A DNA stretch of 62,776 nucleotides, the filler included, from Stramenopiles sp. TOSAG23-3 (Eukaryota): NCBI GenBank assembly GCA_900128585.1. It is 8 parts of 8 records of this genome, joined end to end, with 100 filler letters (N's around TTAATTAATTAA, not from the genome) between each part and the next. Parts side by side here need not be neighbours in the genome. Positions count along the whole stretch, not along the records: positions 9,939 to 19,767 come from LT642875.1; 7 more parts are not named here. The stretch is one strand, 5' to 3'. How positions within the stretch are numbered: the stretch's first letter is position 1; the number at the start of each line of letters is the position of its first letter. A program made the position numbers and the translations under genes. Shown here piece after piece: positions 10,541 through 55,995 of the stretch. A model generated the notes under the pieces. It was not told the DNA's origin, ran no database searches, and saw only the letters and a program-made list of their open reading frames with translations.

Positions 10541-10772
10541 ATTTAAAAACAAAAAATTTGGCTGTTATTTAAGTAATTGCTAAGTACGACGCAAAATTTA
10601 TTTTCTTCATATACCCCGCGAAAGTGAATATGCTCCTTTTTAAAGGTTTACGCTCCTTCGTATATACTGCGAACTTATCTGTGCTTCTGAGATTTTACCA
10701 ATCAATATACCCTTGTCACTAAGTCTCGACTATATATCATTCTCATGTGTACTCCCATGCATGATCCGGAAG
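10541..10772 (+). repeat. Long copy of the dispersed repeat family
   Basis: Core motif followed by AAGGTTTACG...ACTGCGAACTTATCT...CAATATACCCTTGTCACT...CATGCATGATCCG, all shared with 48640-49525. Confidence 0.88.
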
Positions 10773-10852
10773 TAGTATTAATAGGAAAGAATTCTAATAA
10801 AAACCAAAAATATTCTGTAATATTTTTAAAAACAAGTTAATATTTCAGGCGA

Positions 10853-13525
10853 CTAGTTTAAAGTTAATGTTTGCGAATCCACTCGCCTTTTTTTAGTATT
10901 TTCAAAATATTTTGTAATTGTCTTCTGGTGGCCTTTTCTTTGAACAAGAGGTTTACGTCTTCCAATATTGCTTTGACTTTTTCCTTTCCCTTTAAACGTT
11001 TTCACAGAACCATCACTATTTAATCTTAGGTCTTTTCTAGTGAAAACTCTCGAACGCTCCCCGTTTGGTAAAACTATCACATCGTACCCACCCTCGTCGT
11101 TGAGTTTCATATTATTTCGCCGCATGTCAAGAACACAAGCTGTCGTTCTACCCCTCGCTGCTGAAATATCCATACAAATACGATTTGGATACGTCGATCC
11201 TAAGACTACGCCAGCATTCGAAAGCACACCTGCAGGCGAAGTCCAAGGCTTGTGTAAATATTTCGAAGGGAGTTTCGAAAGCTCTGGGACCCATTTTCTT
11301 GTGTAAGCTCCAGTCGGATCCTGGGATGCATTTATAGGAGACATAAAAAAATTCCATTGGTCAATCCCACACCTCCCTGCATTTTGCCACATCATTGCAT
11401 TAATGCTTATGTCCGTATCAATCAGTTCTCGATGAAAGTGATGTTCACCTTGTCTCCAGTCAATATTAAGAACTTCGCAAAGAAAAGAAGCTGCGACCAT
11501 TCTGACCGACTGATTCATCCAACCAGTCTCATGAAGTTCACGCATCCCCGCATCAACTATTGGAAAACCCGTTTTGCCTTGCTTCCACGCTTTCAGCTGA
11601 GATCTACCAGGTTCTGATGAGACACATGTCCACAGTGTCTGATCGTAATGCTTGCGTATACCAACATCACTCATTTCTGGAAAAACAATATTGTGAAAGT
11701 ATGCAAGGTCTCGCCAATACAAACGCCTGAGAAACGTCTTAGTGATACTTCGATCAGGCACTTTGTCTTTCACAGACCAGTAGACGGTGCGAGGCGAAAT
11801 TTCTCCAAAGCGAAGATGCGGTGAAAGATGTGCACTCGATGTGTCAATATCAGCCCTAGATCGCTTTTTTTCATACGCCATTAGTCCAGCTTTTGTGCAT
11901 ACTATAAACTTGCGCAGTGCGGCATGAGCGGAATCTTCCCCAATTTTCGGCCATGCTCGTAAGATATTCTTTCCCCAGTCACACCCCTTTGGCATCTTGA
12001 CAAATGCAATTTTTTCCGAAACCACTTTGATTTTTGGACGTGCTAATATCATCGGAATATCCAACGGCCGTGGCACAGTCCCTCGTTTTTCGCAAGCACG
12101 CAAAAACGGCATCAATGTTCCCCAGTGGAAGTAGCCTTTTTGCCCAGACGACAAGTTGATTGCAGACGGGTCATGCAACGCCGATGTTACAACAACTTTG
12201 GTCATAATGCCCTCTCGTCGAGCAACCTCAATAAGATTTCTATCTTCCTTCACTCCCATCCCATCGTATCGTTCGCCAAGCAAGATTGACTTTGCTCCAA
12301 CCTCTTTAGCAAAAGCAACTGCACACTTTGCCAGTCCATGTCCCTGATCATCATTCGTATAACGAACAATTAACGGGTTGTCGTAGGCATCACGAAGATT
12401 TTTGTCAAGATTCTTCAAAGATTCTTGCAACCATATTGCGCAGGCACTGTCTTCAAGGGTCCACCGGTTCTTACTTTGCCGTGACCAGATGTATAGAGGA
12501 ATGACAGGACAGTCAAGTGAGGCCGCTTGAACCATCAATGGATTATCTCGCAATCGCAATTCGTTCCGTAAAAGCATAACGACTGGCTTTTTAGTTGCCG
12601 AAGAGTCTGAGTCACCAGGTGTCAATGCTGCTTTCTCGATATCCTTCTTGGCAACCGCATTTGGTTGAATTCCATTACCTCGTTGCAGAAATTCTTTTGC
12701 TCCCAGCAGATCAGTATCCTTCCGAATGGGACTTTCAATTAAAGGAGAAACATTCATTTCATTGTAAATATCCAACACCGATTGTGCACCCTGCATGGCA
12801 CACTCAACGTTACTCAAAAACTTGGTGTCAACGAACACGCCAGTCCAGGGTCTAAATCGAAACCTATTCAACCAAATTTTTGTTGGAACAAAAATAGAAC
12901 CATACAGTTTCACGGTCCCTGTTCCATCTATACCATGGGTTTGTTTCAACCATAAAAGTTCTTCTCTAAGCAAAGAACAATTATTACTAAACTGTAACCA
13001 AATGTCGTTGACAATGCCGGTGGAAAGCTTACTACTCAGCCTTGCTCTCTCCTCCTCTCTTTTTTTTCCTTCTGGATAACATGGCGTCCACGCTACACCT
13101 ATTCGCACTCTTTGCTTCCGTGACTGGGTATTCCGTCGATGTGCTTCATGCTTTAATATTTCGATCGAATCAACCTTTTTCTTCGGAGGAGACCCACTGA
13201 TCAATAATATCCGCTGAATGCCTGAAGAATCTGCCTCGTCATAAAATTTGTTCCATCGGTCCAACAGTTTTTTCCCTGCGGCTATTTGAGCCTCTTTACT
13301 TCTTCCACAGCTGCGCCAGTTATACTTCACTGAAAAATGTACACATATGTCAATAGGATTTTTCACAGAGGCAAGAATTACCCTTGCATCCTCTATTAAA
13401 GTGTCTTCTTTAGATTTGTTCGTCAAGTTTATCCCAAGAATTTCGTTGCCCCATTTCTTTACTGCACTAACCAACTCACCTCGTGTCTTAAAGAAACTTT
13501 CAACTCTTGGTTTGCATGTATTCAT
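10853..13525 (-). CDS. Cryptochrome/photolyase, plant-like CryP/PCRY-like group, with N-terminal MetF/MTHFR-like domain
   Basis: LRNELRLRDNP, SAHLSPHLRFGEISPR, FLRRLYWRD, WKQGKTGFPIVDAGMREL..TGWM, MMWQNAGRCGIDQWNF and DPTGAYTRKWVPEL, plus a ~290-aa extra N-terminal domain. Confidence 0.92.
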   Translation of the reverse strand: MNTCKPRVESFFKTRGELVSAVKKWGNEILGINLTNKSKEDTLIEDARVILASVKNPIDICVHFSVKYNWRSCGRSKEAQIAAGKKLLDRWNKFYDEADSSGIQRILLISGSPPKKKVDSIEILKHEAHRRNTQSRKQRVRIGVAWTPCYPEGKKREEERARLSSKLSTGIVNDIWLQFSNNCSLLREELLWLKQTHGIDGTGTVKLYGSIFVPTKIWLNRFRFRPWTGVFVDTKFLSNVECAMQGAQSVLDIYNEMNVSPLIESPIRKDTDLLGAKEFLQRGNGIQPNAVAKKDIEKAALTPGDSDSSATKKPVVMLLRNELRLRDNPLMVQAASLDCPVIPLYIWSRQSKNRWTLEDSACAIWLQESLKNLDKNLRDAYDNPLIVRYTNDDQGHGLAKCAVAFAKEVGAKSILLGERYDGMGVKEDRNLIEVARREGIMTKVVVTSALHDPSAINLSSGQKGYFHWGTLMPFLRACEKRGTVPRPLDIPMILARPKIKVVSEKIAFVKMPKGCDWGKNILRAWPKIGEDSAHAALRKFIVCTKAGLMAYEKKRSRADIDTSSAHLSPHLRFGEISPRTVYWSVKDKVPDRSITKTFLRRLYWRDLAYFHNIVFPEMSDVGIRKHYDQTLWTCVSSEPGRSQLKAWKQGKTGFPIVDAGMRELHETGWMNQSVRMVAASFLCEVLNIDWRQGEHHFHRELIDTDISINAMMWQNAGRCGIDQWNFFMSPINASQDPTGAYTRKWVPELSKLPSKYLHKPWTSPAGVLSNAGVVLGSTYPNRICMDISAARGRTTACVLDMRRNNMKLNDEGGYDVIVLPNGERSRVFTRKDLRLNSDGSVKTFKGKGKSQSNIGRRKPLVQRKGHQKTITKYFENTKKRRVDSQTLTLN

Positions 13526-14151
13526 TTTGTAAAAACTTGTTAGTCGTGAGCAATCAATTTAATGGTCTTTGTCACTAGGATCAAATCTGAATAAACATTG
13601 CAAATTGTACACGAACACATATCATTTCTATAAGTATTAGATTTCTCATTTTTGTTTTGTTCTTCGTTGTTCTTTTTTCTTTCTTCTCATTTTCTTCATC
13701 ATTCACACTGTACTATTATTATTACCTGTACTACCAGGGTCTATTATTATTAATATTATTATATGTGACATAAGCAAATAGTAGGGCAAACTCATCATCA
13801 TCAATCCAACAGCAATATTATTATATTGAATAGCAGGAATACGAGGAGGTGACGAGGACTTCAAAATTTCTTTGTTTGTCGTCGTCGATGAATTTCAACA
13901 TTTTTCGCTCTTTTTTTTTCAATTGTAAAAGCTTCACAGCGCACTGAGCCCCTGTACCCCTAGCGTTAAATCTGCTTCTTGCTGTTTCCTCGTAGTCTAA
14001 ATTGAAATTGTCGGGTTGTACAGACACGACTGCAGCAATTCTTGCGATTTTGTAATTCTTATAGTATAATATTAGTATGAAAATCCACTTTTGACTTTTT
14101 AGGAGAAATATATTAATATTATGTGGATATTTGACCAATGTAAATGCTTGA

Positions 14152-25002: not shown

Positions 25003-28000
25003 TCACTTCTTCTCTTCGGCACCACTGGCACCACCTGGGGCCTGGAACGTATTGACATATCTCAATCTCATGCTCGTAGGTCCTCCACGACGTGATGATA
25101 TTGAAAATCTGTTTTTGCCACCGTTCTTTGCGTGTTGAGCGGTACCTTCGTCTAAACTCACACTGCGCGACAATTTTGCTGGCAAAGGCTCTCGCGCAGA
25201 TTTACCGGAATCGCTCAAGTTCAATTTCTTGGGCACTATAGACGGTGGCTTGCGCAATGTCGAAGAAGAACTCCGAGGAGAACCACTCGGCGACCCCGGG
25301 CTCTTGGATTTTCCCATAGCAAGAGCTAGGGCTACTTCCGGTGACGGGTACATCACAGATTTAAAAGATGGAGAACCACTTCTAGATTTTGAACGAGGGG
25401 ACACAGAAGGCGGAGGCGTCGGTCCAAGATCTGCATCCGTCGGCGGGAGAACAAGCGCTGACGGCCGTCGGCGATCCTTTTTCGTCGGTGTCACTGGAGA
25501 AGACACTGCCTCCGGTGATGACTCGTTGCTCGATGATTTGGAATTGACCCACATTTTTGACTTCTCGTCGTACACAAACTTGTTTTCCCTCCCCAAATTT
25601 GCCACGACCGCTTTTTGGTTCTCATCGGCGGCACCTAGGTCAGCATCAGCAGCAGCATTGTTGTGCGCCCCGTCGGGTTTGTCTTTCCCGAAAAATGCTC
25701 CCACCGTCGATATCATTCCCCAAAATTTCCACGAATCCTCGTTCGAACCTGGCGTATTGTTTCCAGACCCATTGTCACTCACGTAAGGAGAATCCGAACG
25801 ACCCGTACCGGACGACAGTCGTCCAGACTCTGAAAATTCATCGGACGACGACTCTGTAGTGTACTCATTTTGAGACAAGTCCTCGTCCATGTACTCACTG
25901 CCACCCCGTCTACGAAGAAAATCCATCAGCTGAATCAATTGTGCAGATGGATTGCTGCTCTCGGTCGCCTTGGTGAATGCGATATCCAACGACGTTTCCT
26001 TGTTTTTATTTTGCAAATCGTAGTTAGCCCCATAATCGGCAAGTAACTTTACAAGCTTAATGTTTTCCAAACCAACCGCAATGTGCAGCGGGGAATTTCC
26101 CAATCTGTCGGTAACGTCTACAGACGCTGCGCTTTCCAAGAGAAACCTTACACAACTTTCATCGCCCGCTCGGGTTGAAATGTGGAGTGGGGTATCACCA
26201 GCCTTGTTCACTTCATCAATGTCAACATCCCCGCCGTCCGCAGCACCTTGACTGTAAAGCACCGATAACAGTTCGAGGTCTCTCTCTTTGCACGCTTGAT
26301 GCACCGCATACTTTTGCTGCGGCGCAGGCGGAACAGTGAGCTCCTGCTTACGGGGCGAGGCGATTGGGCTTGTTTTTTTCATCTGTTCTCCCAAACTATT
26401 GAGAGCAGCGTTTTCAAAGAACCTTTCCCATACATTAGCCACTCGTTGCGGGGAGGTCGGTTTGTTCTCGCTGCTGCCTTCTTCCGGGGTGTCTGGGTCA
26501 ACAGAAGTTTCAATGGGTCCTTCGCTCTTCGATAGCGAAGATGGCGCCTCCACCTTGTCGTCCGCGACGTTTTGGGCAGCTGCTTGCTCGCCCATGTATG
26601 TTTCTTCTGGCAATGTGGGGGTACTTGGTGGCACATAGCCATTGTTAGTTTTCCTACTTTCCACTGCGTGGCCAAAATGTTGCCCACTGTGTAAATTACT
26701 TTGATGGGCAACGCCTTCTTCTCCAACACTATTTGCGATAGGAGGCACTCCTTTAGGAGGTTCCCAGCTCGATTCGCCGGTCTCGGTATTGTAATAGTAC
26801 ACCGCTCCCTCTTCTGAAGTATACCCTACCCATGGTGAACTGTTATGACCCCAAGCGCTCCACATATTGATATCAACTTCTCCCCCTTCTGCGTACGAAG
26901 CCTCGGGTGGAACGCCCGATTCACCTTGCGCGCCGTACCAGGGCTGCTGCCTGCTTTCGACTGAAGCTTCCAGACGCAAGGGTTGATACTGGGCGCTAGC
27001 AACTCCGGCTACGCGGGCGGTGTCTCCTGAATACGTAGATGAATCGCTGCTGTTCTGACCCTGCAGTTCCGGGGGAACGCTATGCGGGATTCTTTCAATT
27101 TGCTCAGCAGACGGTGGGTTGTCTGGCACTGGTATTCCACCTACGGTAGGTACGTCTTCGAGGACAGTCCCTGCATAAGCCGGCGGGGCATTCTCTGCAA
27201 CGCTTTCTACAGGCTTTTCTTCTGGAAGGCCAGAACCGTGCGGTGTGCGATTCTCGTGGGCCAGGTAAGTCGCACGGGCGTTTCCATCGACGCGGCCATC
27301 GACTGCGTAAGCAGTAGAGCTGGGAAGGATCCCTGCCGTCCCGTGCGACGCAACTTCTTGGTATGTCTCTGTAAGGTGTTCGTTTTGTACTGTGTCAGCC
27401 TTTCGGCTGTCGTTTGTAGGGGCGGGCACGCTGGCTGTTTCGATAAAGCCTTGCTCAGCTGGCGCTTCCGGCGACACAGAGCCCTCGCTTTCTTCAGGTG
27501 CAGCAGCAGCTTCGTGAGCCACTGGTTTATCCGCGGGAACGCTTTCAACATTGTCGGGGTGCTCGCTTGGCAACCCGCCGTGCTCCACCTCGCCGTCACC
27601 GTATGCGTAGTGGATGCTACTGCTTTGGTTCTCCAGCTCGCTTTTTGCAGCAGCGAGTGCTGCCTCCAACTGCAAGATCCTTGTGTCAGAGTCTTCGTTC
27701 TTGGAAAGCGTCACCGACAGTCTGCGCTCATATTGCTCCAATGCCGCCGCATACTGAATCGTTTGCGTCTTCATCGCGTCTTCCACAGATGCCAACGACG
27801 TCTCCAGCGTGTGCTCCTTGTTAGCCTTCGCTTCCAGCTGCATGGATAAACCGTGGACTTGTTGTTCGCTCATTCTCGAACTTGCTCTAACCTCGTTCAA
27901 CTGTTTTTTCTGGGAAGCATTGATTACTTCGAAGCTTCTCAGTTCCATGCGAAGGCTGTTTATGGACCCCATCAACGCGTCTTCCGTGGCTTTGCTCTTG

Positions 28001-29691
28001 CTCTCCAGTGCTACGAACTGCTCGGTTAATTTAGACTTCTCCGCGGAAAGCTTCTTTATGTCCGCTTCCTGCGTTTGTGCTTGCGCTTGCACCTTTGTAA
28101 ACTGCGCATTTTTGTCACGGAGTTCCCTGCGCACGCGGTCAAGCTCTTCTTCGACTACCACCAACCTGGTCTTCAACTCTTTGTTCTCATCCGTCATCCC
28201 CATGGACTCTGCAACTAAGGCTTCGTACACGTCGCGCTCCACTTTCCCCCCTCTGACCGGGGAATAAGGATTCGGCGTAAACACGCTCGATCCCGGCTGC
28301 GCCGATATACTGCCCAAGCTTGCCAGGGGGGTGGAGGCGAGCACACTTTTCCTCGGGGACCCCGAGCTGGACCCTGCTGCCTCGCTGTCGCTGTCGCTCG
28401 ATATCAAATGCGAAACGTTTCCTCCGGCGTTTGATGCGCTTAGCAACGGTGAGTGCACGGAGGGTGGCACTTTTGTGGCCTGTACTACTGGGCGGCGGAT
28501 TTGGTCGGGTAGCATCCGTGCGGGCAACAGCGCAACGCGCTCTGCGCACCACTTTTTTCCCGCTTTGACGGCGACATCGTGCACGGTAGAACCGCTGTTG
28601 GTTTTTGTGTCCAGTATCGCTCCGTACTCGGCCAACTGCACGATGCAAGACGCGTGGCCATTGCCCGCCGCCACGTGCGCGGGAGTCTCCCCTCCCGAAT
28701 TCCTAGTCCCCGGGTTCGCGCCAAACTCTAACAAATACTGTACGCATGACAGGTCCCCCACCGTTGCCGCGAGATGAAGGGGGGAGTTGCCCTCGCGATT
28801 TTGCACGTCCAACGAACTCCCCATTGTCCTAAGGTACGAGGCCACGTCGACCGAATACTTGCCGTTTCCCCCTTTGCAGGCGTGGTGCATCACCGTGTTC
28901 CCTTCGTTGTCCAGCGTAAGAGGGTCTGCCCCTGCCTCGAACAACATTTCCATCCCTGCGAAGTATCCCTGTGCCGCCGCAATGTGCAGAGCGGTTCGGC
29001 CCGCTTTTGCATCAGGGGCGTTTGGATCGGCACCATCCCGTAGCAACTGCTGCACGTGCTCGTCCCCTTGGTAGTTGTAGGACACTGCCCCGTGCAGTGG
29101 CGCGTCCACAGAGACCCTGCGAACGGCCGGCGCTGTCCCCAGGTCGCCGCCAGGGGACGCGCTCGTCGACGGCGTCATAACGTTTCTATTATTGTGGGCA
29201 GACTTCTTGCCCGACTTACCGGCGTCCCCGTTCAGCCCGTGCGTGCGTATCTTGAGGTTCGGCTTCGGGAAGTGGCTTTTCGGGGTCCTAAATTCGTCGT
29301 CGTCGTTTTTCACCCGCCCAGCTCCCTCCGTTCCGTTAGGGCCTTTCGCCGAGACGTTGGACAGCGACGACGACGGTCGCTGGGTCCGCTTTTCGGGGGC
29401 GGACCGGGGTGGCGTGGGAAACGGAGACTCCCACTGCGATTCACCGGTCGCCCCGTTGTAATAATACGCCACCCCGTCGTCTGTCAAACACGTCGACCAT
29501 GCGGCCCACGCTACCTCCTGGGCAGCGTCAAAAACTGACGGGCTGGAAGCACCAGACTTCTTCGGCGAAGGCCTCGGGCCCTCTGGCGTCGTCGCGGACG
29601 ACGAGGACGACGCTTGACTAGTTTTTCGCACCAACTTCCCCCCTCGGTTAAGGTGCACCCCTTTCTCGGGCTGGGGCGCACTGCGAACTTC
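25003..29691 (-). CDS. WW-ankyrin-coiled coil-WW-ankyrin protein with Sec16-like C-terminal motifs (5'-truncated)
   Basis: Two WW domains (W...G..YYYN..TGES.W..P), two ankyrin clusters (GxTPLH) and a central coiled coil. Frame is open to the linker. Confidence 0.88.
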   Translation of the reverse strand, partial: EVRSAPQPEKGVHLNRGGKLVRKTSQASSSSSATTPEGPRPSPKKSGASSPSVFDAAQEVAWAAWSTCLTDDGVAYYYNGATGESQWESPFPTPPRSAPEKRTQRPSSSLSNVSAKGPNGTEGAGRVKNDDDEFRTPKSHFPKPNLKIRTHGLNGDAGKSGKKSAHNNRNVMTPSTSASPGGDLGTAPAVRRVSVDAPLHGAVSYNYQGDEHVQQLLRDGADPNAPDAKAGRTALHIAAAQGYFAGMEMLFEAGADPLTLDNEGNTVMHHACKGGNGKYSVDVASYLRTMGSSLDVQNREGNSPLHLAATVGDLSCVQYLLEFGANPGTRNSGGETPAHVAAGNGHASCIVQLAEYGAILDTKTNSGSTVHDVAVKAGKKWCAERVALLPARMLPDQIRRPVVQATKVPPSVHSPLLSASNAGGNVSHLISSDSDSEAAGSSSGSPRKSVLASTPLASLGSISAQPGSSVFTPNPYSPVRGGKVERDVYEALVAESMGMTDENKELKTRLVVVEEELDRVRRELRDKNAQFTKVQAQAQTQEADIKKLSAEKSKLTEQFVALESKSKATEDALMGSINSLRMELRSFEVINASQKKQLNEVRASSRMSEQQVHGLSMQLEAKANKEHTLETSLASVEDAMKTQTIQYAAALEQYERRLSVTLSKNEDSDTRILQLEAALAAAKSELENQSSSIHYAYGDGEVEHGGLPSEHPDNVESVPADKPVAHEAAAAPEESEGSVSPEAPAEQGFIETASVPAPTNDSRKADTVQNEHLTETYQEVASHGTAGILPSSTAYAVDGRVDGNARATYLAHENRTPHGSGLPEEKPVESVAENAPPAYAGTVLEDVPTVGGIPVPDNPPSAEQIERIPHSVPPELQGQNSSDSSTYSGDTARVAGVASAQYQPLRLEASVESRQQPWYGAQGESGVPPEASYAEGGEVDINMWSAWGHNSSPWVGYTSEEGAVYYYNTETGESSWEPPKGVPPIANSVGEEGVAHQSNLHSGQHFGHAVESRKTNNGYVPPSTPTLPEETYMGEQAAAQNVADDKVEAPSSLSKSEGPIETSVDPDTPEEGSSENKPTSPQRVANVWERFFENAALNSLGEQMKKTSPIASPRKQELTVPPAPQQKYAVHQACKERDLELLSVLYSQGAADGGDVDIDEVNKAGDTPLHISTRAGDESCVRFLLESAASVDVTDRLGNSPLHIAVGLENIKLVKLLADYGANYDLQNKNKETSLDIAFTKATESSNPSAQLIQLMDFLRRRGGSEYMDEDLSQNEYTTESSSDEFSESGRLSSGTGRSDSPYVSDNGSGNNTPGSNEDSWKFWGMISTVGAFFGKDKPDGAHNNAAADADLGAADENQKAVVANLGRENKFVYDEKSKMWVNSKSSSNESSPEAVSSPVTPTKKDRRRPSALVLPPTDADLGPTPPPSVSPRSKSRSGSPSFKSVMYPSPEVALALAMGKSKSPGSPSGSPRSSSSTLRKPPSIVPKKLNLSDSGKSAREPLPAKLSRSVSLDEGTAQHAKNGGKNRFSISSRRGGPTSMRLRYVNTFQAPGGASGAEEKK

Positions 29692-46001: not shown

Positions 46002-47249
46002 ATGATGCGTACAATCAAAGGTTTGGTGTTAGGTTTGGTGTTAACTTTGTGCATTAGTTGTTTCTCGGCAGCTTCCCATGTTCGCAGGGAAATTCGTAGC
46101 CTTTCGGAAACGGAACGGCTTCGTGTTTTCGATGCCATGATCGTCATGAAAAAAACAAGCACGGGTGTTGGAAAGCGGCAGTATGGTAGTGATTTTATTA
46201 ACTACGACGATCTAGTGCTAAAGCATTTTGACGCGTCCGCGACGAAACCGTGTGACCAAGCACATCTAGGTGCAGCCTTTCTTGTGTATCACCGGGCGTT
46301 TTGCCTGATGTTTGAGAATTCTTTGGTAGCGATAGATTCTCGAATTCAGGGTCTACCGTACTGGGACTATAACATGGATTCGCAGCGGGGAGCGGATCCA
46401 AGGCAGTCTGTAGTATGGAGCGATACTTGGTTTGGCAGTAGTTCAGGGGACCAGTCCCAGGGCAACGCTGTCCTAGATGGGCATTTCACACGGAATGGTT
46501 GGCGAATTAAACAAAACGTAGCAAAGACACACGGTCTCTCCAACCCCTTCGACATGTTGCGCGCGCCTTTTAACAACAACCCATCGCCATACGTTACCCG
46601 CCACGATAAAGCCTGCAAAACAGTTACAAAAATAAACCTGAAGGCTTGGGAACTGTGCCTGAAGCCTCCGAATTTTCTCACGTACTACGCTTGCATCGAT
46701 CCAACCATTCACACCATGGCGCACAGTTGGCTCGGTGGCATTTGGAATACACGAATTAGTTTGCCACGACCAGTGTGTTTTGTGACGTACGCAGTTGGGG
46801 TAGAAAAGAATTGGAAAAATGACTGCATTGTTTGCCCCACCAACTGCACCTCCCCAGCGGAAGCATGTGAGTGCACCGTGTCAGACGAGTTTCGATGCCG
46901 GCTCGATAGGGCCATACTTCCCATACCAACGTACGGCGACTTTGCAGACGTTTGGACGTCCCCGAACGACCCTATTTTTTTTTTCCACCATGCCAACGTT
47001 GATAGGCATTTTATGACATGGCAAGCGCTCAAAAAGGCCGAGCCAGCGAACGAATTTGGGGGGTACCCACGGGCAAGCCTACCTTGCAAAGGCCATGGAC
47101 TGGACGACGTGATCGCTTCGGAGAACCCCTTTATGAGTGGACTTTTGCGACAGAATGACAATGCTGGGAAAGAATTTCCATTGACAATTTTTGACGTCTT
47201 GAATGCCACGACTGGTGCCAATCGCAAACAGTTTTATAGTTACGTTTAG
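46002..47249 (+). CDS. Secreted tyrosinase (type-3 copper oxidase)
   Basis: VRREIRSLS..ER, CuA H...AH....FL.YHR, LPYWD and CuB H..AH...SPNDPIFFFHHANVDR. Confidence 0.92.
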   Translation: MMRTIKGLVLGLVLTLCISCFSAASHVRREIRSLSETERLRVFDAMIVMKKTSTGVGKRQYGSDFINYDDLVLKHFDASATKPCDQAHLGAAFLVYHRAFCLMFENSLVAIDSRIQGLPYWDYNMDSQRGADPRQSVVWSDTWFGSSSGDQSQGNAVLDGHFTRNGWRIKQNVAKTHGLSNPFDMLRAPFNNNPSPYVTRHDKACKTVTKINLKAWELCLKPPNFLTYYACIDPTIHTMAHSWLGGIWNTRISLPRPVCFVTYAVGVEKNWKNDCIVCPTNCTSPAEACECTVSDEFRCRLDRAILPIPTYGDFADVWTSPNDPIFFFHHANVDRHFMTWQALKKAEPANEFGGYPRASLPCKGHGLDDVIASENPFMSGLLRQNDNAGKEFPLTIFDVLNATTGANRKQFYSYV

Positions 47250-53748: not shown

Positions 53749-55995
53749 ATGGCCACAAACAAGGTTGCCCCAATGGGCGCCGAGGAGGAACTTAATCCTG
53801 TCACGAGGACCGAAACTGTCATGGACGCGCTGAACAGCGAAGGGGGCAAGAGTACCAAAAAATCAAAGTGTTCGCCCACAGAAATGATTGACCCAGACCA
53901 CCAGTGGCGTCTGCGATGGGATGCACTGCTTATGTTGTTCATCGTGTACAATGCAATTCTAGTACCAATGACCGTTGCTTTCGGAACGAAAGGGTTCTCC
54001 GCTTTGTCATACGTCGACAACGTAGCCGACTCCGCGTTTATTATCGATCTCTTTTTGTCTTTTAGGACAGGCTTCTACGTACGAGATGGCGCAGACAAAG
54101 TGCTTGTGCTCGACCAAACACAAGTAGCAGTTCGCTACCTGCGTGGGTGGTTTGTTATTGACGTGGCTGCCATCGGGATCCCTTACGGCCTCATAGACGC
54201 GTTGGAAGGAGTGGACAAAACGACGCAGTACATCTTGTCCTTGTTGGCCCTTTTGAAGCTTCTGCGTCTGGCACGTTTAGGGCGTATCCTGTCAAAATTA
54301 ATCCATTTGTCAATGGAGTACCAAAATGTGGCAAGAATTTCCAAGTTAGTGATTACATTCGTTTACGTTGCTCACTTATTCGGTTGCCTGTTTTATTTCG
54401 TCGGCGCAGCCAACGATTGCGCGGAAGTGAACCTTGCAGCGGCAAAAGCCAAGAATATTACCCTTGATCCAAGCGGACCTGAATTGAACTGCGAATGGAC
54501 CGGCGCCAACGGGATGAAAGACGTAGACATCGGGACCCAGTACATCACCTCTTTGTACTGGGGGATGATGACGGTCACCACCGTCGGTTACGGAGACATC
54601 AGCATCATGAGCTCCTCTGAAAAGGCTTATGCAACGTTTGTGATGATCGTAGCAAACGTGATGGGAGCCGTGATTTTTGGAAACGTTACGACGCTAATCC
54701 AGAATTTAAGTGCGGCGGAAAATCGCCACTCTTCGAGAACAGAAATGATTGAAGAATTGATCGAAACCCATAAAATTGAAGAATCGCTGGCCGAGCGGAT
54801 GCGAGCTACAGTAGAGTATCAATGGGAGTTAACGAAGTGTTTTGACATGGATCTGGTCCTGTCGTACATGCCCCAATCCCTGCGCGTCGAAGTGCTTATG
54901 TATGTTCATAAGCAGTTGATAATGAAAGTTCCGTTTTTTCAAGACTGCGATGATGCGTTTATTAAGACGGTCGTTTACCGGTTGAAAAGCGAGATTGCCT
55001 TAGAGGGCGATACCCTTTTTGAACAAGGAGACGCGGCCAATGAAATGTATTTCTTACGCCGAGGGCAAGTTGCCGTCGTCGCGCCGAACTCGGAGGAAAT
55101 CCTGGTTAAACTGAGCGATGGGTCTTACTTTGGCGAAATAGGGGTATTGGTTGAGTCGGGAAAGCGAATGTTTTCGATCAAAGCGCTTAAAAAGTGCGAA
55201 TATTACATGCTGACAAAAGCCGATCTTGACTGGGTAACAAATAAATTCCCTGAGTATCGAGAAGTCCTAAGGCTGGCAGCAGTTAAGCGTTTAGAAACAA
55301 GCAACAAGGCGATAAAGAACTCTCATGCTAGCAAAGTTTCCCACGGTCGTATCCTTATCGAGGTGCGTAACGTCACCGGAGCTGGCCCCGGGGTTGACAA
55401 GTTTTGCAAAGTGATTATTAAAGATCACGAACAACGCTCACCAGTTTTGGGCGCAAATAGTGCAGCCGAAAATTTTGACCTAAATTCCATCTTTAATTTT
55501 CATTTTGAAATGAAAGCACCTGAAAAAGTCGAAGATTTGCACGTAAAAGTCCACTTAATGCACAATAGAACTCTCTTGGGGGAACACCTTGTTGGCGGAG
55601 GTGAAATTCCCTTCGCTGGTATTAAGCGAGGAGAGTACAACGATCGGTGGCTAACAATAGGTAAAGGTCATGGCGGGAAAGAAATTAAGATGTACTTGAG
55701 AGTTCTAGTTCACGAGGATGGTTTGGCAGACCCAACCAACAGCCCCAACGGCGTTCTGTCTACGTTGGCCTCCAAAGATGCAGAGGATTATGATGACTTT
55801 GACTTGCCCGGTAGCAAGAAAGAAGAAACCAAAAGCAGCCCTGCGGCAACGTTAGAATCGAAAACTAACACCGTCCAGGGGTCGAACCTGGAAAGTAGAA
55901 TTGTGGCTTTAGAAACTAACATACAGGGTTTGACCGCGGTGATAAATTCGATTGCAGACAGCGTCACAAGAATTGAACAAAATTTAGAAAAATAA
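53749..55995 (+). CDS. Six-TM K+ channel of the CNBD (KCNH/HCN/plant Shaker-like) family with C-terminal C2 domain
   Basis: S4 LLKLLRLARLGR, filter TTVGYGD, C-linker and CNBD (EMYFLRRGQV...GSYFGE...R), followed by a C2-like beta sandwich and a short coiled coil. Confidence 0.92.
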   Translation: MATNKVAPMGAEEELNPVTRTETVMDALNSEGGKSTKKSKCSPTEMIDPDHQWRLRWDALLMLFIVYNAILVPMTVAFGTKGFSALSYVDNVADSAFIIDLFLSFRTGFYVRDGADKVLVLDQTQVAVRYLRGWFVIDVAAIGIPYGLIDALEGVDKTTQYILSLLALLKLLRLARLGRILSKLIHLSMEYQNVARISKLVITFVYVAHLFGCLFYFVGAANDCAEVNLAAAKAKNITLDPSGPELNCEWTGANGMKDVDIGTQYITSLYWGMMTVTTVGYGDISIMSSSEKAYATFVMIVANVMGAVIFGNVTTLIQNLSAAENRHSSRTEMIEELIETHKIEESLAERMRATVEYQWELTKCFDMDLVLSYMPQSLRVEVLMYVHKQLIMKVPFFQDCDDAFIKTVVYRLKSEIALEGDTLFEQGDAANEMYFLRRGQVAVVAPNSEEILVKLSDGSYFGEIGVLVESGKRMFSIKALKKCEYYMLTKADLDWVTNKFPEYREVLRLAAVKRLETSNKAIKNSHASKVSHGRILIEVRNVTGAGPGVDKFCKVIIKDHEQRSPVLGANSAAENFDLNSIFNFHFEMKAPEKVEDLHVKVHLMHNRTLLGEHLVGGGEIPFAGIKRGEYNDRWLTIGKGHGGKEIKMYLRVLVHEDGLADPTNSPNGVLSTLASKDAEDYDDFDLPGSKKEETKSSPAATLESKTNTVQGSNLESRIVALETNIQGLTAVINSIADSVTRIEQNLEK

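Follow-up and report, generated by a model that had tools for sequence, protein, structure and literature searches.

What does a photolyase-like protein carry at its N-terminus when almost 300 residues precede the part that resembles a photolyase? This question is raised by a gene at positions 10853 to 13525 on the minus strand of a 62,776-nucleotide stretch of DNA from the marine protist Stramenopiles sp. TOSAG23-3 (assembly GCA_900128585.1), a stretch of eight parts joined end to end that is referred to below as the window. The original prediction, made from the sequence alone, described one uninterrupted open reading frame (ORF) of 890 amino acids (aa) whose first ~290 residues form a globular barrel akin to MetF, the methylenetetrahydrofolate reductase (MTHFR), with a photolyase region following from about aa 312. 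The reading frame is indeed uninterrupted throughout, and the first photolyase family found in it, PF00875, starts at aa 315. As set out below, the protein is best explained as an MTHFR-like barrel, a cryptochrome-type photolyase region and a tail, with the barrel acting as a coupled folate module, and a probability of roughly 0.55 is assigned to this explanation as a whole. Its parts differ in strength. The architecture and homology of the fused protein are close to certain, and the proposed mechanism, a folate-binding module coupled to the photoreceptor, is tentative and is placed somewhat below an even chance.

The fold of the N-terminal domain (N-domain) was modeled with AlphaFold2 on an alignment of 65 family members. 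The resulting model contains eight alternating strand/helix units between aa 7 and 282 with a mean predicted local distance difference test score (pLDDT) of 91.0 and a predicted template modeling score (pTM) of 0.88, in agreement with the globular character foreseen for this part. All 28 matches listed up to rank 50 in a Foldseek search of the PDB were MTHFRs, with E values of 3e-9 to 1e-6 and template modeling (TM) scores of 0.46-0.61. A fold search independent of Foldseek, run against 48,161 PDB representatives, placed MTHFRs at ranks 1-3 and atypical MTHFR-fold proteins at ranks 4-6, the first non-MTHFR fold scoring 16.5. MTHFRs ranked at the top in three fold searches with this model, and the domain does model as the expected TIM barrel of the type found in MTHFR, an oxidoreductase linked to flavin adenine dinucleotide (FAD). 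Protein-language-model look-alikes of the N-domain include MTHFR and mycobacterial-type MTHFR clusters (0.86-0.89); nearer ones (0.90-0.91) are unnamed clusters labeled Cyanobacteriota and Chlorophyta, and all these look-alikes are treated as a lead only.

Sequence comparison arrives at the same superfamily by way of bacteria. The N-domain profile matched 2 of 301 Pseudomonadota genomes (E values of 2e-5 and 9e-5), and the bacterial ORFs matched, 253-283 aa in length, pass the cut-off of the MTHFR family PF02219 with 43-45 bits against a required 24. The N-domain family aligned with the bacterial 253-aa MTHFR-like proteins at an hhalign probability of 95-96% (E values of 2e-8 to 6e-9), and the bacterial family aligned with 30 MTHFRs, gathered from sampled proteobacterial genomes with PF02219, at 97% (E value of 1.6e-11). 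Homology between the N-domain and MTHFR is reached only transitively, via the PF02219-passing bacterial family, and the evidence is indirect but consistent. The motifs quoted in the original prediction are all present, namely VHFS (aa 62-65), ILLISGS (106-112), IGVAWTPCYPE (142-152), RLSSKLSTG (162-170), IWLQF (175-179) and LYGSI (207-211), and profile alignments reproduced the five correspondences with MTHFR that had been drawn from them: VHFS with HLTC, ILLISGS with ALRGD, VAWTPCYPE with VAAYPE, LSSKLSTG with LKRKVDAG and WLQF with ITQF.

Relatives of the N-domain are numerous. Among 1.84 billion representative proteins, aa 1-312 had 422 relatives at E values of at most 1e-3, 239 at 1e-10 and 32 at 1e-30. 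When a search with the N-terminal 310 aa was restricted to proteins about as long as the whole protein, all three matches were fused proteins of 894-909 aa, near-full-length orthologs that carry both photolyase domains in the same layout. Because of the 422 relatives and these three orthologs, a chance extension of the ORF is excluded for the N-terminal part. The N-domain defines a branch of the MTHFR superfamily that is new and widespread, with 422 representative clusters. Eleven N-domain matches of at least 590 aa were scanned, and photolyase domains follow the N-domain in ten; in the eleventh, P0135 (749 aa), the barrel precedes a ubiquitin domain and a weak cNMP-binding match below the Pfam cut-off. 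The reverse view was obtained by sorting the photolyase region's 120 nearest relatives by length and checking them for the N-domain. The barrel is present in 77 of the 78 relatives of at least 800 aa, in 10 of 27 relatives of 620-799 aa (pieces truncated at the N-terminus) and in none of the 15 shorter than 620 aa. Records under the names Guillardia theta, Odontella aurita, Cylindrotheca closterium, Nitzschia inconspicua, Thalassiosira exigua and Breviolum minutum contain fused proteins. Several of the fused proteins come as complete ORFs from MMETSP transcriptomes of cultured algae, so that the fusion suggested as worth looking for in protist transcriptomes does occur there. These records label the proteins only as 'photolyase', 'Photolyase/cryptochrome alpha/beta domain-containing protein' or 'hypothetical protein'. 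The fusion, the rule within its clade, is frequent among diatoms, cryptophytes and dinoflagellates. The barrel also exists by itself, in proteins of 278-340 aa (P0009, P0013, P0014; Amorphochlora amoebiformis, Neomeris dumetosa, Ulva mutabilis), which suggests that the barrel was formerly a free protein and was later joined to the cryptochrome. Two further proteins, P0357 (857 aa) and P0359 (766 aa), carry a photolyase region of the same clade behind ornithine-cyclodeaminase (PF02423) and WHEP-TRS (PF00458) domains.

The same data bear on whether the fusion could be an artefact, either two adjacent genes read as one or a chimaeric assembly. RNA evidence consisted of metatranscriptome contigs from four runs; their strand cannot be read and DNA carry-over is possible, which counts against the proposed explanation. 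Contigs of three separate studies bridge the domain junction (~12592) at an identity of at least 99%, with neither joint nor gap (run X16, 12067-12718; X17, 12322-12864; X15, 12464-12645). Transcription across the junction is thereby shown, and the ~12600-12700 stretch singled out in the original prediction is spanned. Jointless contig cover of the gene extends over ~10829-13460 and ends just inside both ORF ends, and the upstream intergenic stretch 13528-13700 lacks RNA contig cover in all four runs. An artefact would be favored by the fact that none of these runs covers the whole gene with any single contig; against it stand the uninterrupted frame, the contigs of three studies across the junction and the recurrence of the fusion in 77 of 78 long homologs, complete transcriptome ORFs of cultured algae included. 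Such an origin is as good as refuted.

Residue conservation in the N-domain was counted over 154 rows, the query together with proteins among P0002-P0154, aligned to the family model. The residues mapped to known functional positions of MTHFR are given with the other features in Table 1. Glu9 is kept in 113 of 114 family sequences, Gln178 in 135 of 150 (and in all 58 fused proteins aligned below) and Phe224 in 123 of 148. His63 (123/131) and Ser65 (121/132) correspond to His88 and Thr90 of E. coli MTHFR, beside the flavin, and Gly111 (143/143) to Gly119; Glu159 (151/152) and Lys166 (151/151) correspond to Asp165 and Lys172, which contact the ADP part of FAD. Other near-invariant residues are specific to the family, namely Lys37 (122/122), Trp227 of the F-R-P-W motif (146/147) and Glu264 (132/135). 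The conserved polar residues lie at the C-terminal strand ends, where TIM-barrel active sites sit, and this placement points to a working ligand site in the N-domain. In the MTHFR literature, the acid of the Glu28 type activates methylene-tetrahydrofolate (PMC11094777, PMC3156243), Asp120 is required for catalysis (PMC11094777) and 19 FAD-contact residues are listed for E. coli MetF (PMC11271092).

Table 1. Coordinates of the gene, its domains and the mapped residues in the window
Feature	Position	Strand	Basis or remark
Whole gene, single 890-aa ORF	10853..13525	-	No intron detected; stop codon 10853-10855
N-domain, aa 1-285, divergent MTHFR-superfamily (beta/alpha)8 barrel	12671..13525	-	Model, fold searches and bridge alignments
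Glu9, equivalent to catalytic acid Glu28 (E. coli MTHFR), Glu18 (Thermus) and Glu9 (M. hassiacum Mfr)	13499..13501	-	Superpositions and bridge alignments
Ser110-Gly111-Ser112, replacing MTHFR Arg118-Gly119-Asp120	13190..13198	-	hhalign mapping; folate-/FAD-binding Asp lost
Gln178, equivalent to pterin-binding Gln183 (N1/N8) of E. coli MTHFR	12992..12994	-	hhalign mapping
Phe224, equivalent to Phe223 of E. coli MTHFR (folate phenyl-ring stacking); in F-R-P-W motif	12854..12856	-	hhalign mapping
Linker, aa 286-311, predicted disordered	12593..12670	-	pLDDT <50 for aa 286-309 in full-length model
Photolyase-homology region, aa 312-805, cryptochrome-like	11111..12592	-	PF00875 aa 315-485; PF03441 aa 598-794
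Conserved structured C-terminal tail, aa 806-850	10976..11110	-	GGYD...LP.G...VFT.K..R motif; beta hairpins
PIP-box-like QKTITKYF, aa 867-874, followed by KKRR, aa 878-881	10904..10927	-	Pattern match

Several results on the N-domain weigh against the proposed explanation. Neither Pfam nor NCBIfam assigns a family to aa 1-312, the N-domain profile had 0 matches among PDB sequences at E values of up to 10 (a phmmer search of the N-domain against PDB sequences likewise gave no match), and PF02219 is absent from the 25 listed of the 37 Pfam families matched by the 65 members at the same threshold. Direct hhalign comparisons were weak, with a probability of 1% (E value of 0.053) for E. coli MetF alone and 28.5% (E value of 6e-4, 212 columns) for the 30 proteobacterial MTHFRs. 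Over the first ~70 residues, two direct alignments, that with the 30 MTHFRs among them, put the N-domain's second strand on MetF's first, a slid register that would bring Ile32, not Glu9, onto Glu28. Asp120 of MTHFR binds pterin N3/NH2 and lies over the flavin; at its equivalent, position 112, the residues are Ser in 72, Gly in 44, Thr in 10, Pro in 9 and Asn in 3 of 143 sequences, with neither Asp nor Glu among these five commonest residues (138/143). Finally, only ~9 of the 19 FAD contacts of E. coli MetF are the same or conservatively replaced (H88, T90, L117, G119, A150, D165, K172, I181 and Q183), five are replaced by another conserved residue, one is variable and the rest are not alignable, which leaves FAD binding and catalysis unproven. 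Further replacements are Arg118 to Ser, Tyr152 to Asn, Asn168 to Arg and Tyr60 to Asn, and Arg171 is variable. The original interpretation is partly supported: the structural idea of an MTHFR-type barrel is confirmed, its functional ideas (antenna loading, redox cycling, a tie between light and one-carbon metabolism) stay tentative, and the absence of Asp120, with only ~9 of 19 FAD contacts kept, makes FAD binding uncertain.

The slid register is not the only one available. The alignment with E. coli MetF alone pairs His63 with His88, and the structural superpositions begin with model residue 1 on E. coli residue 20, model residue 1 on Thermus residue 10 and model residue 4 on Mfr residue 4; equating Glu9 with Glu28 through them assumes that the opening residues align without gaps. 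The in-register mapping, with Glu9 on Glu28, Glu18 and Glu9 of the three enzymes, is preferred because the eight strands run in the same order, the superposition offsets agree and both bridge alignments agree.

What the barrel might do can be weighed from this pattern of kept and lost residues. Because the Glu, the Gln, the Phe, the His and Ser next to flavin N5 and the Glu/Lys pair of helix 5 are kept, the barrel is predicted to bind a folate and a dinucleotide, most likely a reduced folate plus either FAD or NAD(P)H. It may catalyze, or at least sense, hydride transfer involving the one-carbon unit, probably with a changed specificity, since Asp120, Arg118 and Tyr152 are replaced. These same replacements, with only about half of the FAD contacts kept, could instead mean that catalysis has been lost and that the barrel is a pseudoenzyme scaffold serving only oligomerization or partner binding, and in this connection MTHFRs are described as oligomers (PMC3156243) and the barrel is also found with other partners (the ubiquitin domain and weak sub-cut-off cNMP-binding match of P0135). 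A scaffold would not, however, account for near-invariant polar residues at the C-terminal ends of strands (Glu9, K37, Q178, E264), which fit a ligand site, or for the stand-alone forms in Ulva mutabilis, Neomeris dumetosa and Amorphochlora amoebiformis, and we consider it unlikely. The residue pattern argues most strongly against a scaffold and least against the folate-linked readings. Under the preferred explanation, that of a coupled folate module, the tethered barrel would be an enzymatic or metabolite-sensing partner of the cryptochrome, as input or output, and the tether would couple the blue-light state to the folate/one-carbon or redox state. The more specific proposal of gating, in either direction, between the cryptochrome's blue-light state and folate hydride transfer in the barrel is speculative and, taken by itself, improbable.

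The photolyase region matches its two Pfam families strongly (E values of 5e-20 for PF00875 and 3e-62 for PF03441), and MMWQNAGRCGIDQWNF is located at aa 711-726 of the translation. Its best solved relative is PhrA, a class III cyclobutane pyrimidine dimer (CPD) photolyase (4u63, E value of 3.3e-68), with plant CRY2 and CRY1 next; the match to E. coli class I photolyase is far weaker. The region is accordingly placed on the branch of class III CPD photolyases and plant cryptochromes, and these nearest solved structures also give the support for a putative place in the plant-like CryP group. With the plant-cryptochrome NCBIfam model TIGR02766 the region scores 217.7 bits, below the cut-off of 603.85. 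Fifty-eight fused homologs were aligned with E. coli photolyase (K-12 record). The electron-transfer Trp triad (W632, W690, W713) is kept in all 58, as are Asn709, W604, R555 and M676, the equivalents of N378, W277, R226 and M345 of the E. coli enzyme. Plant CRY1 and CRY2 have Asp at the flavin-N5 position (D396 in AtCRY1), where all 58 fused homologs have Asn709, and the family departs from plant cryptochromes on this point. Two positions stand out: Arg601 and Asn715 occupy, in 58 of 58, the places of the Glu and Trp of CPD photolyases (E274 and W384 of E. coli), both lesion-binding. Five solved CPD photolyases (Sulfolobus, E. coli, PhrA and Anacystis twice) all keep Glu and Trp there, and the position of E. 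coli R342 is Ser in 50 of the 58. The conserved glutamate is essential for repair according to PMC7736829. Because the Trp triad is kept but two lesion-binding residues are lost, the region is read as cryptochrome-type; judged from these residues, it is probably a cryptochrome that does not repair CPDs, and at minimum it is most likely not a standard CPD photolyase.

How the two domains are arranged remains loosely defined in the full-length model (pLDDT 88.5, pTM 0.66). This pTM and the disordered linker mean that no fixed contact or arrangement of barrel and photolyase region is predicted, a further point against the proposed explanation. This result also bears on two other roles for the barrel. 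It might make, stabilize or hand over the labile 5,10-methenyl-tetrahydrofolate (methenyl-THF) antenna for the photolyase region next to it, or hold a second light-absorbing folate or flavin. To our knowledge, no MTHFR-fold enzyme produces methenyl-THF, non-fused cryptochromes load methenyl-THF without such a domain and no domain-domain contact is predicted, and this role is accordingly judged quite unlikely; a folate antenna is reported for CryP. Alternatively, the barrel might be a flavin reductase that oxidizes NAD(P)H, as in MTHFR's first half-reaction, and keeps the cryptochrome FAD (semi)reduced in the dark. The conserved His/Ser near the flavin N5 and the Glu159/Lys166 ADP pair would suit such an enzyme, and PtCryP was isolated with a stable neutral radical, as stated in a review, but the conserved folate-specific Gln and Phe would not be needed and no interface for the passage of electrons is predicted. 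A flavin reductase is thus very unlikely.

Beyond the photolyase region, the protein ends in a tail that is conserved and modeled as folded, not disordered. Residues G813, Y814, D815 and T829 are invariant in the 58 sequences, strands are predicted at aa 815-818 and 824-828, and pLDDT exceeds 90 over aa 801-840. Farther on lies a sequence of the form Q..[ILMV]..[FY][FY], which we take to be the canonical pattern of the PCNA-interacting protein (PIP) box. Of the 58 fused homologs, 5 have it within their final 90 aa, as compared to 9 of 11,600 shuffled tails. These five include all three members of the window's own subclade, where the corresponding sequences of the two closest orthologs are QETIKNYF and QKSITSFF; several more fused homologs have I-x-x-[FY]-[FY] tail variants. 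The PIP-like tail and basic cluster hint at a nuclear or DNA-linked role, should the pattern be functional. At the other end of the protein, a targeting peptide would not fit, because the barrel begins at residue 7. One X15 contig has a 22-base insertion at 10859, just ahead of the stop codon, that matches the 894-aa variant P0002 with its different last few residues, and it therefore represents a strain variant of the C-terminus.

The neighboring ORFs of the window are eukaryotic nuclear genes, encoding ORC2, a GRIP-domain protein, Kae1/TsaD, NCA2, Costars-PH and ankyrin-WW proteins, a cyclic-nucleotide-gated channel and a tyrosinase. Other long intron-free ORFs are those of the tyrosinase-domain protein (46002-47249, plus strand), the cyclic-nucleotide-gated ion channel (53749-55995, plus strand) and the 1551-aa ankyrin/WW protein (25003-29658, minus strand), and six window ORFs of at least 250 aa are without a Pfam family. 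Just downstream of the gene, at 10700-10768, contig depth is much raised in three RNA runs, and contigs continue at 10733-10735 into unlike sequence, which suggests a repeated or conserved element common to other loci.

Cryptochromes are generally depicted with a photolyase-homology region and a C-terminal tail, and here a large clade, transcribed in the open ocean, has in addition a conserved, folded, enzyme-like N-domain. No description of a fusion between an MTHFR-like barrel and a cryptochrome was found in the open literature; diatom cryptochrome/photolyase papers that are not open, and supplements, may bear on this. The photoreceptor family is known, and its enzyme-like domain, which had gone unrecognized, adds a new branch to a known superfamily. 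A relative of folate enzymes that keeps folate-site residues sits beside the cryptochrome-type region, CryP reportedly has a folate antenna, and the arrangement may tie light sensing to folate chemistry. Should the speculative gating proposal hold, major marine phytoplankton would possess a direct post-translational link from light to one-carbon and methionine metabolism, or an in-situ supply of methenyl-THF antenna, and green-algal barrels that stand alone would represent a new class of folate enzyme.

With FAD-dependent MetF/MTHFR (PF02219; PDB 1zp3, 3apt, 6fnu, 6fcx), the N-domain has just 12-16% identity and differs by an extra long helix 3 and its own F-R-P-W motif; eukaryotic MTHFR is fused to a regulatory domain that binds S-adenosylmethionine, whereas the N-domain is fused to a photoreceptor. 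The mycobacterial FAD-independent Mfr (8bgr, 7wmz) and the atypical MTHFR-fold proteins S6MTHFR of Sphingobium (7xg9) and Cthe_2304 (3ijd) are structurally farther from the N-domain than the FAD-dependent enzymes, and all three are free-standing bacterial enzymes, unlike the fused N-domain. The closest sequence relatives found with a named family are the short bacterial MTHFR-like proteins (loci L114-L122; 246-283 aa), from Pseudomonadota genomes G147, G159, G023, G007, G035, G039 and G027, which pass PF02219 weakly. They share with the N-domain the motifs E-L-x-P/F, I-N-L-P, L-L-V-(S/T)-G, A-x-(D/N)-P-Y and Q-K-L-x-x-G, but are prokaryotic, ~30 residues shorter and keep the Asp (T-G-D-P). Their genes adjoin a CysG-N-type precorrin-2 dehydrogenase/siroheme synthase gene at five of seven loci, and no photolyase gene lies beside them at the loci examined, which gives no link to light.

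On the photoreceptor side, cryptochromes in general are described as a photolyase-homology region plus tail (PMC12558739), and oomycete cryptochromes with an N-terminal extension belong to the animal-type clade (PMC13674864). Class III PhrA (4u63) keeps the Glu and Trp where the fused family has Arg and Asn. In PMC8591175, PtCryP of Phaeodactylum tricornutum is shown with a photolyase-homology region, a ~70-aa tail and no N-terminal domain, and reviews draw it in the same way; the fusion is not presented in them as typical of CryP. The window protein resembles CryP, as there described, in having a short C-terminal extension. A parallel in layout is offered by chimeric algal photoreceptors such as dualchrome, a phytochrome-cryptochrome fusion that, according to a review, likewise has a second cofactor-binding module N-terminal to its cryptochrome region. 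In contrast to dualchrome, the module added here is an enzyme-like folate/flavin barrel and not a second photoreceptor, and the fusion is found widely instead of in a single species.

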